This document shows, one piece after another, positions 61,312-64,000 of a DNA stretch of 64,000 nt (position 1 is the first letter of the stretch; the number at the start of each line of letters is the position of its first letter). A program made the translations under genes and the position numbers. The DNA is taken from the NCBI GenBank assembly GCA_963715255.1, contig CAVQRN010000005.1:9880-73879 (forward strand), read 5' to 3'. The notes under the pieces were generated by a model that was given only the letters and a program-made list of their open reading frames with translations, was not told the origin of the DNA and did not search any database. This stretch comes from an uncultured Actinomycetota bacterium (GTDB taxonomy: Bacteria > Actinomycetota > Acidimicrobiia > Spongiisociales > UBA5794).

Positions 61312-62060
61312 CAGTCACACAACACCCCGGTACGCGGCGGGAAGTGATCGGTCGCGATTGCCTGCTCGATTGCGTTCCACAGGGCTTCCAGCTGCCGCTC
61401 CATGGCGTCGAGTTGCCCGTCATCGATCGGGATCTCGAGGACCTTTGGGCCCGTGAGGTACATCAGACGGAGCGCGACGGGCGTTCGACCCTCCCGGATG
61501 CGGATGAGGAGTGCATAGATCTTGAGTGCGAAGAACGCCGACATCGCGAATCGCTCCGGAGGAGCTTTGCCGCTCTTGTAGTCGGTGATCACGAGACCTT
61601 CGGGCGTCTCCTCCATCCGATCGAGGATGCCGCGGATGGTCATGTCCCCGACGGCCTGAGTCATGTCGAGTTCGCGTGATAGCGGATCGATCTGGGTGGG
61701 ATCCTCCATCGCGAAGTAGTTGTTGAGGATGGCGAGACTCTCGATGCCCCAAGCACGCTCGGCCTCGATGCCGTCGAACAGATCGGGGAACGCTCGCGGC
61801 TTGAGCTCTAGCCATGCCGCTCGGAAGAGATCGGAGAGACGCTCAGGGGTTCGATCCATTGCGGGCAACTCGAAGAGCCGCTCAAGAGCGAGATGAGCGG
61901 TCGTTCCCCTTGCCTGGTACACCGTCGGCGGCGTGGGAATTCGATCGATCGCACTGAACTTGAACAGCTGAGGGCAGCGCTTGAAGTCGCCGGCCCGCGA
62001 GGGAGAGAGGCTTGTCAGGCCCACGCGGTCACTTCCGGTCTGCTGAGTGTTCGACGTCAT
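61254..62060 (-). CDS. PD-(D/E)XK (RecB-family) nuclease
   Basis: ATG 62060 (MTSNTQQTG). SLSPSRAGDFKRCPQLFKF ... GILDRME..LVITDYKSGK ... CDWCSYQDIC. Confidence 0.75.
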   Translation of the reverse strand: MTSNTQQTGSDRVGLTSLSPSRAGDFKRCPQLFKFSAIDRIPTPPTVYQARGTTAHLALERLFELPAMDRTPERLSDLFRAAWLELKPRAFPDLFDGIEAERAWGIESLAILNNYFAMEDPTQIDPLSRELDMTQAVGDMTIRGILDRMEETPEGLVITDYKSGKAPPERFAMSAFFALKIYALLIRIREGRTPVALRLMYLTGPKVLEIPIDDGQLDAMERQLEALWNAIEQAIATDHFPPRTGVLCDWCSYQDICPAFTDDRGGGV

Positions 62061-62191
62061 GGGGAGGACTATACGGGACCGGTGTGACACGAACCACAGC
62101 CGTGTAACTACCCCGGGTCGAAGAATGGGACAACGCGGGTTGGAGGGAGTCCCCCATGTGCAGCTCGATCCGGTCCGTCTAGCGTGCGGGC

Positions 62192-62446
62192 ATGCGGATT
62201 GTTCTTTCACTTCTGCGTGCGGCTGTCGGCGCGGTCTTGCTGATGGTCGGTGCCGCGGCGCTGAAGTGGTACGTGTGGGATGTTGTGATCGGGCAGGCGG
62301 GCGAGTCAGACCGGTCCATGCTCTTCTGGGGACTCCCGATCCTCTTCATCGGAATAGTCGCCGGTGCCGCAGGCGTGGGTCTCATCATCAGTGCCGTCCA
62401 CGACGTCCGGTCCCACAGCGTTCGCGGTGTCGGAGAGGGTTCCTGA
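62192..62446 (+). CDS. small membrane protein (84 aa)
   Basis: ATG start. Two hydrophobic helices (LLRAAVGAVLLMVGAAAL, FWGLPILFIGIVAGAAGVGLIISAV). No family recognised. Confidence 0.45.
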   Translation: MRIVLSLLRAAVGAVLLMVGAAALKWYVWDVVIGQAGESDRSMLFWGLPILFIGIVAGAAGVGLIISAVHDVRSHSVRGVGEGS

Positions 62447-62556
62447 TCACGGACGACCGACCACGGACCACGGAATTCGCCGCTCAGCGTGCGGTTCGCG
62501 AAACTTCAGGATCGAACGCGAAAACCAACCAGTGTTTTCGGTGGACAATGCCGCAC

Positions 62557-62880
62557 GGGGCCTCTAGTTTCTCGACTGTCGCCGGGACGGGAGACCGAAC
62601 CGGGGACCACCGGCCCGAAAGGGTCGGCCCGGAGTTCGAAAGGGCACCGGGAACGTCTGACCGGACACCCCTCGAAAGGGGCGGCGTCGACCTCGCAAGA
62701 GGTCACTGGAAGCGGCCTTCGGGCCGGGACCGGGCGGAAGGACACCTCGCCGGACGGCTTCGGCCGGATGGTGAGAGCGAACGGTCGTAAGGCCGCTCGC
62801 ACCGACGGAATCAGCCCTCCGGGGCCGGGACCGTCGGAACGAGGACACCCCGAGGGGGCGCAAGCTTCCTCGGGGTTTCT
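62557..62880 (+). ncRNA. candidate structured non-coding RNA of unknown class
   Basis: No credible ORF on either strand. There are at least 8 hairpins capped by GNRA loops (GAAA 62617, GCAA 62695, GUAA 62787, GCAA 62860) or UNCG loops (UUCG 62718, UUCG 62759, UCCG 62818). A module is duplicated (62706-62733 vs 62802-62837). A terminal 8-bp hairpin (62848-62875) is followed by TTTCT. The 5' end is not defined. Confidence 0.4.
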
Positions 62881-62967
62881 CGCGTGGACCTTTGGCCCAT
62901 GTTGAGCACGCACCTCAATACCCGATACCCAGTACTCCGCGATGCCGGGGCGGCTACACTCATCGTC

Positions 62968-63612
62968 ATGCCATGGCCTGAAGATGCACTCAGTCAAGAC
63001 GAGACGATCGTCACCGCATTCCGTCAGCACTGGAAGCTGCTCGTGATCCCGATCGGTTGGTTCATCCTGGCCATGGCGATCATCATTCTTGTATTGACGC
63101 GCGATTGGTGGCAGCCGGCCGAATGGGTCATCATTCTCGCGGTGGTCGGTGCCGGCATCTGGTTCATCGTGCGACCGGTCGTCAGTTGGGCAACGACCCG
63201 GTACGTGCTGACGACCCACCGGCTCATCACTCGCAGGGGACTCGTCGCGAAGTCGGGGATCGAGATTCCTCTCGAGCGGATCACGAATGTCAACTTCAGC
63301 CAGACCGTGTTTGAGCGGATGCTCGGCGCCGGAGATCTGCTGGTCGAGTCGGCAGGTACGGGTGGGCAGAGTGCGTTCTCGAACATCCCGCATCCCGATG
63401 CCTTCGCAACGTTGCTCTACAAGGTCCGTGAGGAACGTTCCGTGGCACTTCAGGGACGGCCACCGGCTGCACCTGCCGCACCCGCGGCGGCACCGGACGC
63501 GCCGTCTGACGCAACGGAACGACTCCAGCGGCTCAGGCAACTCCACAACGACGGTGTCCTTACCGACGCAGAATACGAAGAGAAGCGTGCCAAGCTCGTC
63601 GGCGAGATCTAG
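62968..63612 (+). CDS. membrane protein with bacterial PH (bPH_2/YdbS-like) domain and C-terminal SHOCT domain
   Basis: ATG 62968 (MPWPEDALSQDETIVTAFRQHWK) is preferred over GTG 62884. YVLTTHRLITRRGLVAKSGIEIPLERITNV is bPH_2-like. LHNDGVLTDAEYEEKRAKLVGEI is SHOCT-like. Confidence 0.75.
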   Translation: MPWPEDALSQDETIVTAFRQHWKLLVIPIGWFILAMAIIILVLTRDWWQPAEWVIILAVVGAGIWFIVRPVVSWATTRYVLTTHRLITRRGLVAKSGIEIPLERITNVNFSQTVFERMLGAGDLLVESAGTGGQSAFSNIPHPDAFATLLYKVREERSVALQGRPPAAPAAPAAAPDAPSDATERLQRLRQLHNDGVLTDAEYEEKRAKLVGEI

Positions 63613-63633
63613 CACCAAGACCCGGCGGGTTCG

Positions 63634-64000
63634 TCATCCCAGAGCGAAACGGGTGATCGTTTCGACGTGATAGGTCTGTGGGAAGAGATCGACGGGTTGC
63701 ACCCAGTCGATCCGATACCCGGAACCAACCAGGAGCGAGGCATCGCGCGCGAGCGACGCAGGGTCGCATGAGATCAGCACGATCGTCCGGGGTCCCGTTC
63801 TGGTGACGGCGGCTACCCCCTCCGAGCCGAGACCGGCTCGTGGTGGATCAACCACAGCGACGTTCCAACGGTCCTTCGCCGTCGGAGCGACGCGTTCAAA
63901 GGGGCCGAATAGCGAGCGATATCGACCAGGGATGACGTGCTCGAGGTTTCCGGTGATCGCACCGAAGGCCGCCTTCCCGGCATCGATCGTCACAACACGA
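63634..64000 (-). CDS. class I SAM-dependent RNA (uracil-5)-methyltransferase, TrmA/RumA-like, 3' part only (runs off the window)
   Basis: VVDPPRAGL ... VLISCDPASLARD ... VQPVDLFPQTYHVETI. The ORF is open to the window edge. Confidence 0.75.
   Translation of the reverse strand, partial: RVVTIDAGKAAFGAITGNLEHVIPGRYRSLFGPFERVAPTAKDRWNVAVVDPPRAGLGSEGVAAVTRTGPRTIVLISCDPASLARDASLLVGSGYRIDWVQPVDLFPQTYHVETITRFALG

Follow-up and report, generated by a model that had tools for sequence, protein, structure and literature searches.

The 64-kb window (the whole stretch of DNA analysed here) contains an intergenic region for which an earlier note had proposed an unclassified structured RNA on the plus strand. 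The question raised by this locus is whether such an RNA gene exists, where it starts and ends, and what its product might do. The gap, described before as about 520 nt without a credible ORF, measures 521 nt and contains only basic, low-complexity ORFs. It lies between an 84-aa membrane ORF without a Pfam domain, which ends at 62446, and the likely start (ATG at 62968) of a gene with the Pfam domains bPH_2 and SHOCT. Farther neighbours are genes for a PD-(D/E)XK nuclease and a UvrD helicase. Every test run supported the proposal: approximately positions 62576–62882 of the plus strand are a conserved gene for a highly folded, predicted non-coding RNA of ~305 nt, which falls outside the known RNA families.

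Extent of the RNA gene and its family

The element is kept in 34 distinct relatives, all of the carriers being uncultured MAGs, and nhmmer searches against the relatives gave E-values from 1e-47 to 1e-107. The proteins adjoining the RNA in the window have counterparts of 98–100% identity on the metagenome contig Ga0316188_10007625 (L142). In the alignment of these homologues, the substitutions have no 3-nt periodicity, and a whole hairpin is gained or lost as an indel of 36–37 nt; a coding region is ruled out by the missing codon periodicity and by this indel. The signals around the gene are as follows.

62497..62504, plus strand: distal upstream box CGCGAAAC (within TTCGCGAAAC), the first of two direct boxes
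62517..62525, plus strand: proximal upstream box CGCGAAAAC, with the conserved CAACCAG(C/T)G after it
62542..62547, plus strand: putative −35 hexamer TGGACA, assigned by conservation
62565..62570, plus strand: putative −10 hexamer TAGTTT (TAnnTT), assigned by conservation
62576..62882, plus strand: predicted mature RNA, its 5′ end deduced by way of the −10 hexamer and its 3′ end by way of the hairpin and UUUCUCG
62840..62882, plus strand: terminal hairpin H13, with a core at 62848–62875 extended by CGAGGA/UUUCUCG pairing
62955..62970, plus strand: bPH boundary, consisting of the −10 hexamer TACACT (62955–62960), 7 nt, and the ATG (62968) of the bPH_2/SHOCT gene

The RNA has its own conserved, putative promoter and is an independent transcription unit, not the 5′ UTR of bPH. 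Transcription would proceed from a sigma-A-type promoter composed of the −35 hexamer TGGACA, a spacer of 17 nt whose sequence is unconserved, and the −10 hexamer TAGTTT. In alignment A1, the T, the A and the final TT of the −10 hexamer are invariant (positions 26, 27, 30 and 31 of the first sequence), with variable flanks; distant family members have TACnTT. The −35 hexamer is found as GTGGACA in the clade of the window and as TTGACG or TTGCGA in distant relatives. The 5′ boundary of the RNA had been placed at 62557, but since the −10 hexamer occupies 62565–62570, the transcript probably starts at ~62575–62578. Farther upstream, two CGCGAAA(A)C boxes stand ~21 nt apart, about two helical turns. 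This two-box element is kept upstream of every RNA in the family, and the position of its proximal box relative to the −35 hexamer is kept in all relatives. Apart from the site at this RNA, no two-box site occurs in the 64-kb window; in related genomes, the element is also found upstream of nrdJ and dnaA.

At the other end, the transcript would finish at a GC-rich hairpin of 12–19 bp followed by UUUCU. In the window this is H13, which has a 12-bp GC-rich stem with a tetraloop and then UUUCUCG, and which occurs there once. Its sequence, including the stem (CACCCCGAGGGGG...GCTT.CT.GGGGT), is invariant in 34 of 34 sequences and is common to both paralogue types. H13 is presumed to be the intrinsic terminator and the signature of the family. 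The consensus terminator scan requires at least 5 T in 8 bases and gave no call here, the T run being too short; U tracts of such shortness occur frequently in Actinobacteria. The promoter of the RNA was not picked up by the consensus promoter scan either, so the assignments of both promoter and terminator rest on conservation.

The RNA is the bPH-proximal member of a family of hairpin-chain RNAs, 145–430 nt long, which usually occur as two in tandem. The two paralogous genes share the promoter architecture and the 3′ hairpin, and hairpin counts in the relatives range from 4 to above 10. The family is restricted to one subclade of Acidimicrobiia MAGs, with one or two copies per MAG, always at the same locus, between the helicase-nuclease operon and a leaderless bPH/SHOCT gene. 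In the 64-kb window, the bPH-proximal copy stands alone, neither a further copy nor the upstream paralogue having been found. The signature hairpin does not occur in viral_contigs, and a phage origin was rejected on this ground.

Fold, covariation and strand

The predicted fold would string together some ten short helices that carry GNRA or UNCG tetraloops at their tips, and would include one three-way junction. The earlier note had listed eight hairpins read from the sequence, and all of them are present where it had placed them (first two lines below). The helices of the fold are listed after them.

62612–62625, 62668–62681, 62689–62704 and 62714–62725, plus strand: the first four of the eight hairpins
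62756–62765, 62777–62800, 62814–62825 and 62848–62875, plus strand: the other four, the last one followed by TTTCT
62578..62607, plus strand: H1, the 5′ hairpin, GUC-GCCGG-GA-CGG-GAGA-CCG-AA-CCGG-G-GAC; 84% of cells paired
62610..62627, plus strand: H2, CCGGCCC-GAAA-GGGUCGG; 98.7% paired, with an invariant G·U pair
62628..62651, plus strand: H3, CCCGG-A-GUUC-GAAA-GGGC-A-CCGGG; 76% paired, with double-sided changes in 4 pairs
62655..62743, plus strand: junction domain (helices 4–8), a closing helix around three branches; double-sided changes in 13 pairs
62664–62688, plus strand: junction branch with a GAAA loop
62689–62704, plus strand: junction branch with a GCAA loop
62706–62733, plus strand: third junction branch, with a UUCG loop and a 4x4 internal loop
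62746..62775, plus strand: H9/10, CUCGCCG-GA-CGGC-UUCG-GCCG-GA-UGGUGAG, with a tandem GA/GA internal loop
62777..62800, plus strand: H11, GCGA-A-CGGUC-GUAA-GGCCG-C-UCGC; 97% paired, with double-sided changes in 6 of 9 pairs
62802..62837, plus strand: H12, the second copy of the internal-loop hairpin module

In H1, the apical CGG/CCG stem and the GNRA loop are nearly invariant. H9/10 is paired to 97% in its apical part and to 82% in its basal part, and the apical GGCUUCGGCC is also kept in distant family members. H12 is cleanly missing in 9 of the 34 relatives, as the indel of 36–37 nt. The duplication of a module, which had been claimed before, was borne out: the two copies (H12 and 62706–62749) align with a score of 18, while the scores of shuffled sequences averaged −3.6 and never exceeded 9 (0 of 1000 as good). 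The longest supported pair spans 89 nt (62655–62743); all of the covariation-supported helices are local, and the 5′ and 3′ ends each lie in their own hairpin, not paired with each other. About half of the unpaired bases are A.

The folding energy of the RNA is −0.61 kcal/mol per nt. For the region 62540–62885, the minimum free energy of the plus strand is −200.3 kcal/mol against −165.2 ± 5.5 for shuffled sequences (z = −6.35; 0 of 100 shuffles as good), while the minus strand gave z = −1.87. Homologous regions are present in many relatives, and covariation is seen among them. In the 34 distinct homologues, 91.4% of the cells of the 109 proposed pairs are paired, as compared with 31–53% when the partners are slid by 1–3 columns. 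Double-sided changes were found in 34 pairs (116 cells), against 14–21 pairs (21–41 cells) after sliding, and none of 500 shuffles reached the observed values of pairing and double-sided change. RNAalifold gave 85 pairs, 17 of them compensatory. Among the pair cells, G·U occurs 416 times and A·C 99 times, which fixes the strand. The plus orientation deduced earlier is upheld by this ratio, by the difference in folding z, and by the occurrence of GNRA and UNCG loops on one strand only.

These data also bear on the idea that the hairpins act at the DNA level, as REP-like palindromes, protein-binding sites or a stack of terminators insulating divergent genes, with no functional RNA made. The region does hold many GC-rich palindromes, is intergenic between divergently regulated genes, and has a terminator-like hairpin as its family signature. 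Nevertheless, we regard this idea as extremely improbable. The strand asymmetry extends to invariant G·U pairs, the GNRA and UNCG loops are confined to one strand, RNA pairing is maintained by compensatory changes, and a dedicated conserved promoter lies upstream; moreover, the family has 1–2 copies per genome at a single locus and is not dispersed. REP or MITE palindromes in particular were rejected by the single copy in the 64-kb window and the strong strand asymmetry.

Relation to the neighbouring genes

The earlier note had asked whether the bPH/SHOCT gene is always downstream. It is so at nearly every locus, the exceptions being L211, in which the RNA pair is inverted, and a few others such as L086, L094, L128 and L149. 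A TAnnnT hexamer occurs ~6–7 nt before the bPH ATG in roughly 45 loci inspected, and no obvious Shine-Dalgarno motif was seen by eye in the listed upstream sequences. The −10 hexamer lying 7 nt before the ATG indicates that bPH is leaderless. The spacer leading back to the RNA hairpin is 40–180 nt long and unalignable.

The strict positional conservation beside bPH and the nuclease operon could reflect a local (cis) role instead of a role in trans. In such a case, the RNA would regulate bPH/SHOCT as an attenuator or riboswitch-like leader with terminator read-through, or its strong promoter would occlude or interfere with the bPH promoter. The RNA lies 40–180 nt upstream of bPH on the same strand at nearly all loci, even where bPH identity is ~45%. 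At many loci, the terminal hairpin is just 45–50 nt from the bPH ATG, and the bPH −35 region would there abut the conserved tail CTCGCGTC. However, bPH has its own conserved −10 hexamer at a leaderless distance with no visible Shine-Dalgarno motif, and no antiterminator pairing that competes with the terminator arms was seen. The upstream paralogue, with the same promoter and the same terminal hairpin, has behind it either a gene on the minus strand or the promoter of the next RNA, with no co-directional ORF. In L211 the RNA pair is directed away from bPH, and Ilumatobacteraceae-like relatives keep the leaderless bPH in the absence of the RNA. By these features the RNA is independent of the bPH mRNA, and a bPH leader or riboswitch was rejected. 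Whole hairpins are gained and lost between relatives, unlike a ligand-binding core, and only in the terminal helix is the sequence invariant; a ligand-binding core was rejected on these two points. Taken as a whole, we consider cis regulation of bPH/SHOCT unlikely.

Another reading of the same neighbourhood is that the RNA forms an RNP with the product of a neighbouring gene, either the membrane bPH/SHOCT protein, in an OLE-like manner, or the helicase-nuclease machinery that processes DNA ends. Throughout the carrier clade, the RNA genes stay between the nuclease and bPH genes, whichever way they point; their promoter boxes are common with those of DNA-replication genes; and the prevalence of A among the unpaired bases, together with the many GNRA loops, is a usual trait of RNAs that make tertiary or protein contacts. 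Related Acidimicrobiia, however, carry the same helicase and bPH genes without the RNA, which indicates that neither protein needs it. The gene order of the region is conserved anyway, so the adjacency of the RNA may be historical. An RNP of this kind is highly unlikely.

Candidate functions and comparison with known RNAs

We favour the reading, with a probability of roughly 0.4, that this independent gene produces a stable trans-acting RNA that binds a protein as a decoy or scaffold, with RNA polymerase (RNAP) as the leading candidate partner. Nearly all bases lie in local helices and the tetraloops are closed; the only extended invariant sequence is a helix, H13, and the number of hairpins varies from 4 to more than 10. 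These features suggest a protein binder rather than a base-pairer. The invariant 3′ hairpin may serve as terminator, stability element and recognition element, and the variable hairpins may be modular. RNAP is suggested as the partner by analogy with the 6S, Ms1 and CoRP RNAs, the latter two from other Actinobacteria. Actinobacteria are without a recognised 6S RNA and have lineage-specific RNAP-binding RNAs of 230–516 nt, Ms1 and CoRP, and it has been proposed that every species possesses an abundant RNAP-associated RNA of its own (PMC9130861; PMC11077062). Against the favoured reading, the RNA does not adopt the rod form around a central bubble that 6S has, and neither its sequence nor its structure resembles the Ms1 of S. 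coelicolor.

A classical trans-acting sRNA that base-pairs with mRNAs, for example those of nrdJ or dnaA in the same regulon, seems distinctly improbable. The gene stands by itself, with a promoter and a terminator hairpin, as is usual for sRNAs, and the two-box element common to the RNA, nrdJ and dnaA makes co-regulated targets conceivable. On the other hand, the RNA is ~305 nt long, nearly all of its bases lie in stable local helices, and it is far more structured than typical seed-based sRNAs. Its apical loops are closed GNRA or UNCG tetraloops, and its conserved single-stranded stretches are short and A-rich. Outside the 3′ hairpin, the sequence drifts with compensatory changes, which indicates that selection acts on the structure and not on a seed.

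There is also a slim chance that the RNA and its paralogue represent a new class of modular hairpin-chain RNAs in an Acidimicrobiia replication/repair regulon, where they would be cofactors or regulators of a protein of the pathway or of the adjacent bPH/SHOCT protein. The RNAs would then be driven by the two-box element of dnaA and nrdJ and anchored beside the helicase-nuclease operon, with its damage-type promoter. If this were true, the RNP would be one without a described counterpart. Apart from this possibility, the two-box promoter element common with dnaA and nrdJ may mark an unknown regulator of replication-linked genes.

Whatever its function, the family is well defined, with at least 34 distinct sequences, a covariation-supported fold, and a defined putative promoter and terminator, and it lends itself to an Rfam entry and to experimental work. 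Acidimicrobiia are largely uncultured bacteria of marine waters, sediments and sponges. In the literature we found no report of a lineage-specific structured RNA, 6S or other sRNAs in this group, and nothing on an RNA linked to bPH/SHOCT. RNAP-binding RNAs such as Ms1 and CoRP have been found clade by clade, and under the favoured protein-binding reading the present family is a concrete candidate for their equivalent in part of the Acidimicrobiia.

The earlier failure to match the region to a known RNA family was reproduced with covariance models. Rfam 15 at gathering thresholds gave no match in the whole window, including none to the raiA motif, OLE, ROOL or GOLLD, and none in 14 related loci; with E up to 10 on 62350–63050, only chance-level hits to mir-5391, P35 and BjrC80 appeared, all far below threshold. 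ARAGORN found 0 tRNA/tmRNA genes in 62000–63100. The 6S model (RF00013) matched neither the window, nor 62350–63050 with E up to 10, nor the relatives.

Among known systems, the CsrB/RsmZ sponges are similar in being stand-alone genes with a terminator hairpin and arrays of short hairpins whose number varies by species. They differ in showing a repeated GGA in their loops, where the present loops are GNRA or UNCG. GGA is not enriched in the RNA (16 observed, 13.6 expected); in apical loops it is found only at H1, where the first two bases of the loop GAGA complete a GGA, and all other occurrences are at the ends of helices or within internal loops. No repeated loop motif pointing to a sponge was seen, and the GGA sponge was rejected for lack of enrichment. 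CsrA is not known in Actinobacteria.

The raiA motif, OLE, ROOL and GOLLD are likewise covariation-supported RNAs of unknown or poorly known function that came to light through comparative genomics. The partners of OLE are membrane proteins encoded beside it. These RNAs have conserved junctions, pseudoknots, invariant unpaired nucleotides and a wide phylogenetic range, whereas here a modular chain of hairpins varies in hairpin number and has its invariant sequence in the 3′ hairpin only.

With 6S RNA, the present RNA shares the character of a stand-alone regulatory RNA (abundant in the case of 6S), the occurrence as paralogue pairs (6S-1 and 6S-2), and a function that would depend on structure rather than sequence. 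However, 6S folds into one rod of ~180 nt, in which a central bubble mimicking an open promoter lies between a closing stem and a terminal stem, whereas here every supported helix is local, the two ends of the RNA are not paired with each other, and no bubble is conserved.

Ms1 (MTS2823 / scr3559), an sRNA that binds the RNAP core, comes from the same phylum, is 230–300 nt long, has an independent gene and a lineage-specific sequence that is hard to find by homology, and carries a 5′ hairpin and a 3′ terminal hairpin around a structured centre (PMC9130861). In this layout, the present RNA has both end hairpins, but its centre consists of hairpins and a three-way junction and not of a rod, the Ms1 structures themselves being predicted. 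The Ms1 of S. coelicolor folds as one long irregular rod of ~125 nt that contains bubbles and has an energy of −0.44 kcal/mol per nt, in contrast to the chain of short tetraloop hairpins here at −0.61, and by eye its sequence has no similarity to the RNA. An Ms1 model is held in Rfam (PMC9130861), and no Rfam model matched here. In PMC9130861, Ms1 is flanked by genes for a HAD-IB hydrolase and an oxidoreductase and is not reported from Acidimicrobiia, whereas the immediate flanks here are the small membrane protein and bPH. Membership in Ms1 or 6S was rejected on model match, synteny and fold, and what remains is an analogy of possible function.

CoRP of Corynebacterium, an RNAP-binding RNA of 516 nt, was discovered experimentally by RIP-seq, is encoded between tRNA genes and undergoes cleavage that yields two fragments, in which it differs from the present case (PMC11077062). 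Nevertheless, it is a long, structured, intergenic actinobacterial RNA that is restricted to its lineage and has no homologues outside its clade (PMC11077062), so that the resemblance, drawn from its description, is one of kind and not of family. CoRP also shows that an RNAP-binding RNA need not resemble 6S (PMC11077062).

Fold and conservation of the RNA

The predicted non-coding RNA of about 305 nt (approximately 62576–62882, plus strand; hereafter, the RNA) lies between an 84-aa membrane ORF and the bPH/SHOCT gene. The earlier note had seen no credible ORF in this gap, and only basic, low-complexity ORFs were found there. When 61800–64000 was read, all eight hairpins claimed in that note were located where it had placed them. 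The minimum free energy of the plus strand of 62540–62885 was −200.3 kcal/mol, as compared with −165.2 ± 5.5 kcal/mol for dinucleotide shuffles (z = −6.35; 0/100 as good), and the reverse strand gave z = −1.87. Because of the z-scores on the two strands and the presence of the hairpins, the hairpin region is real, beyond chance and strand-specific. Its helices (H1–H13) are arranged as follows.

62578–62607, plus strand: H1
62610–62627, plus strand: H2
62628–62651, plus strand: H3
62655–62743, plus strand: three-way-junction domain
62746–62775, plus strand: H9/10
62777–62800, plus strand: H11
62802–62837, plus strand: H12
62840–62882, plus strand: terminal hairpin (H13)

Nearly all bases of the RNA fall within local helices, closed GNRA or UNCG tetraloops form the loops, and 51% of the unpaired bases are A. 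The module that had been described as duplicated is borne out: its copies align with a score of 18, the shuffle maximum being 9.

Thirty-four distinct homologues were aligned with MAFFT and scored against the minimum-free-energy fold of the window (13 helices, 109 pairs). In this alignment, 91.4% of the cells were paired, a fraction inflated by the use of a scoring structure taken from one of the aligned sequences, whereas 31–53% were paired in the control, where the partners were slid by 1–3 columns. Changes on both sides were found at 34 pairs (116 cells), as compared with 14–21 pairs (21–41 cells) in the slid controls, and none of the observed pairing measures was reached by shuffles (0/500). 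RNAalifold, applied independently to 17 sequences, recovered these hairpins with 17 compensatory pairs; the covariation in relatives, for which the earlier note had proposed to look, is thus present. The plus-strand orientation was likewise confirmed by the two z-scores and by 416 G.U cells versus 99 A.C cells. Since G.U cells far exceed A.C cells and several G.U pairs are invariant, selection acts on the plus-strand RNA. The substitutions have no 3-nt periodicity, and 9 of the 34 aligned homologues lack the whole hairpin at 62802–62837 as a 36–37-nt indel.

Promoter, 3′ end and the separate bPH gene

Upstream of every member of the RNA family, two boxes (the two-box element), a conserved stretch, a −35 hexamer, a spacer and a −10 hexamer occur in a common order. 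These features and the −10 hexamer of bPH are listed below.

62497–62504 and 62517–62525, plus strand: two direct boxes CGCGAAA(A)C, about 21 nt apart, conserved across the family
After the boxes and before the −35 hexamer, plus strand: CAACCAGCG-like stretch, conserved across the family
62542–62547, plus strand: putative −35 hexamer TGGACA (TTGACG or TTGCGA in other members)
Between the −35 and −10 hexamers, plus strand: 17-nt spacer, unconserved
62565–62570, plus strand: putative −10 hexamer TAGTTT (TAnnTT), conserved across the family
62955–62960, plus strand: bPH −10 hexamer TACACT, 7 nt before the ATG at 62968

The 3′ hairpin, including its stem, is invariant in sequence in 34/34 homologues and is followed by TTTCTCGCG. 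The promoter and terminator assignments are based on conservation, and the consensus scans called neither at the RNA. Because the signal is asymmetric between the strands, a dedicated promoter is present and the pairs covary, it is highly improbable that the hairpins are DNA-level palindromes or stacks of terminators. The locus is a conserved plus-strand gene for a covariation-supported non-coding RNA, equipped with a promoter and a 3′ hairpin of its own and independent of the bPH mRNA. That the RNA family is real is strongly supported, and we put the probability of a real structured RNA gene at about 0.9.

The downstream protein carries the Pfam domains bPH_2 and SHOCT. The spacer between the RNA and bPH is unalignable and 40–180 nt long; at its end, a TAnnnT hexamer occurs about 6–7 nt before the bPH ATG in about 45 relatives, some of them from clades that lack the RNA. 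No Shine-Dalgarno motif was obvious by eye in the listed sequences upstream of bPH, and the bPH mRNA appears to be leaderless. From this geometry it follows that bPH has its own promoter and that the RNA is not the bPH 5′ UTR. The GTG start at 62884 in the ORF listing is probably wrong, and the ATG at 62968 is preferred. The stretch that separates the RNA hairpin from the bPH −10 hexamer often contains short tandem repeats, which differ by genome: among the related loci (L-numbers), CTGGCAT ×7 in L013 (1925–2050), GTTCTGT ×4 in L083 and GGACTAC ×3 in L010 (2850–3000), with L107 also carrying such repeats. The spacer of the window holds ATACCCGATACCCAGTACTCC at 62905–62950.

Relatives, paralogues and neighbouring genes

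When the bPH protein was searched against GTDB species genomes, 61 loci were obtained, of which L001–L049 are almost all from Acidimicrobiia MAGs; a few contigs with other phylum labels look mis-binned. Such labels were Saprospiraceae or Kiloniellales (L001, L050, L076, L106), Acidobacteria (L019, L071) and Armatimonadetes (L020), and mis-binning is the likely reason for filing an Acidimicrobiia-specific locus under unrelated phyla. The homologues sought by the earlier note were found by nhmmer, using the window RNA and then a profile: closer relatives have full-length copies (E = 1e-47 to 1e-107) on the same strand as bPH and immediately 5′ of it, and in more distant relatives the matches were partial and fell in the 3′ part. 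Further genomes and 29 metagenome contigs, but no viral contigs, came from scanning for the pattern of the 3′ hairpin. One metagenome contig (L142, Ga0316188_10007625) encodes the helicase, nuclease, small membrane, bPH and methyltransferase proteins of the window at 98–100% identity, a pointer to the kind of sample in which the organism of the window lives. The family has a narrow phylogenetic range, uncultured carriers and a simple hairpin-chain architecture.

Many genomes have a second RNA gene about 0.5–1.2 kb upstream, adjoining the nuclease gene. It shares the promoter architecture and the lower stem of the 3′ hairpin (CCCCGAG.GGG...C.CCTCGGGG), and its apical extension is longer than that of the bPH-proximal RNA. 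Among the matches listed in the two-box motif scan, further members were found in other Acidimicrobiia, and the typical pair is a 145–260-nt RNA with about 4 hairpins followed by a 230–400-nt RNA. The genes stand in the order nuclease(−), RNA1(+), RNA2(+), bPH(+). The window has the bPH-proximal copy only, and the other position is taken by the small membrane ORF (84 aa, two-helix, 62192–62446). The closest relatives also conserve this ORF: L002 (1860–2090), L004 and L007 have it on the opposite strand, and L010, L137 and L142 on the same one; the upstream paralogue, missing in the window, is kept in L002 and L010. The strand switches and the absence of the paralogue point to a history of local inversion or deletion.

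It is unlikely that the RNA regulates bPH in cis: their strict adjacency favours it, but each has its own promoter, the RNA its own 3′ hairpin, and the paralogue and locus evidence is also contrary. In L211 (1100–1583), the RNA pair (158 + 147 nt) is inverted, so that it is aimed at the nuclease gene, runs in the direction of that gene and diverges from bPH, and in Ilumatobacteraceae-like relatives the helicase gene lies 60–100 nt from a leaderless bPH gene with no RNA between. An RNP formed with a neighbouring gene product is very unlikely, since those proteins are present in relatives without the RNA.

According to Pfam, the minus-strand genes upstream of the window RNA encode a PD-(D/E)XK nuclease and a UvrD-type helicase. 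In L200 and L258, the operon adjoining the RNAs consists of two successive nuclease and UvrD-helicase pairs, the second 23–30% identical to the first, an arrangement reminiscent of a split AdnAB-type heterodimeric helicase-nuclease. The nuclease gene is preceded by conserved TGTCAC..-N8-TAnnnT-N6-9-start in at least 16 related loci, in the window as follows.

62058–62089, minus strand: nuclease start (ATG 62060), preceded by TGTCACAC-N8-TATAGT-N7-ATG

This arrangement looks like a leaderless promoter, which we take to resemble the actinobacterial RecA-NDp/PafBC damage-inducible promoter.

Shared promoter element, predicted function and known systems

Among the matches listed, the two-box element was also found upstream of the class II ribonucleotide reductase gene nrdJ (L161, L234) and of dnaA (L171, L173 of Ca. 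Actinomarina, L198); the scan includes chance matches in other phyla, and the regulon is sketched from these matches. The NrdJ of L234 and the DnaA of L171 were confirmed with Pfam, and the nrdJ loci and RNA carriers belong to the same MAGs (L161 with L064, L234 with L008). The element has the form CGCGAAAAC-N10-14-CGCGAAAAC (L234, 506–535; L161, 3162–3190; L164, 7920–7949). NrdR-box-like palindromes were seen by eye between it and nrdJ. The shared element suggests a common regulator of replication-linked genes and these RNAs; the link of the RNA to a dnaA/nrdJ promoter element is new.

Family members differ in hairpin number in a modular way, from 4 to over 10, and a helix is the one sequence that stays invariant. 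A base-pairing sRNA is quite unlikely, there being no accessible conserved seed. With its local helices, closed GNRA/UNCG loops and A-rich unpaired bases, the RNA would most likely be a stable protein-binding RNA acting in trans; the full statement including this binding is tentative, at somewhat below even odds.

No described family was matched by the RNA, which is, in kind, a lineage-specific structured regulatory sRNA. As the earlier note had supposed, no significant Rfam match was found: Rfam 15, run on all 64 kb, gave none at gathering thresholds, a relaxed limit of E up to 10 on 62350–63050 brought up nothing better than chance-level matches well under threshold, and the loci of relatives were negative too; ARAGORN found no tRNA or tmRNA at the RNA region. 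On the features tested, the RNA could be placed neither with 6S or Ms1 nor among riboswitch leaders, REP elements or Csr-type sponges; GGA is not enriched in it, so a Csr-type sponge is unlikely. Against RNA polymerase as the partner, the fold is no rod around a central bubble and is unlike that of S. coelicolor Ms1, and the locus lacks Ms1 synteny. RNA polymerase is nevertheless the leading candidate partner: Actinobacteria lack a recognised 6S RNA and use lineage-specific polymerase-binding RNAs, namely Ms1 (230–300 nt) and CoRP (516 nt), and each species has been proposed to have its own (PMC9130861; PMC11077062).
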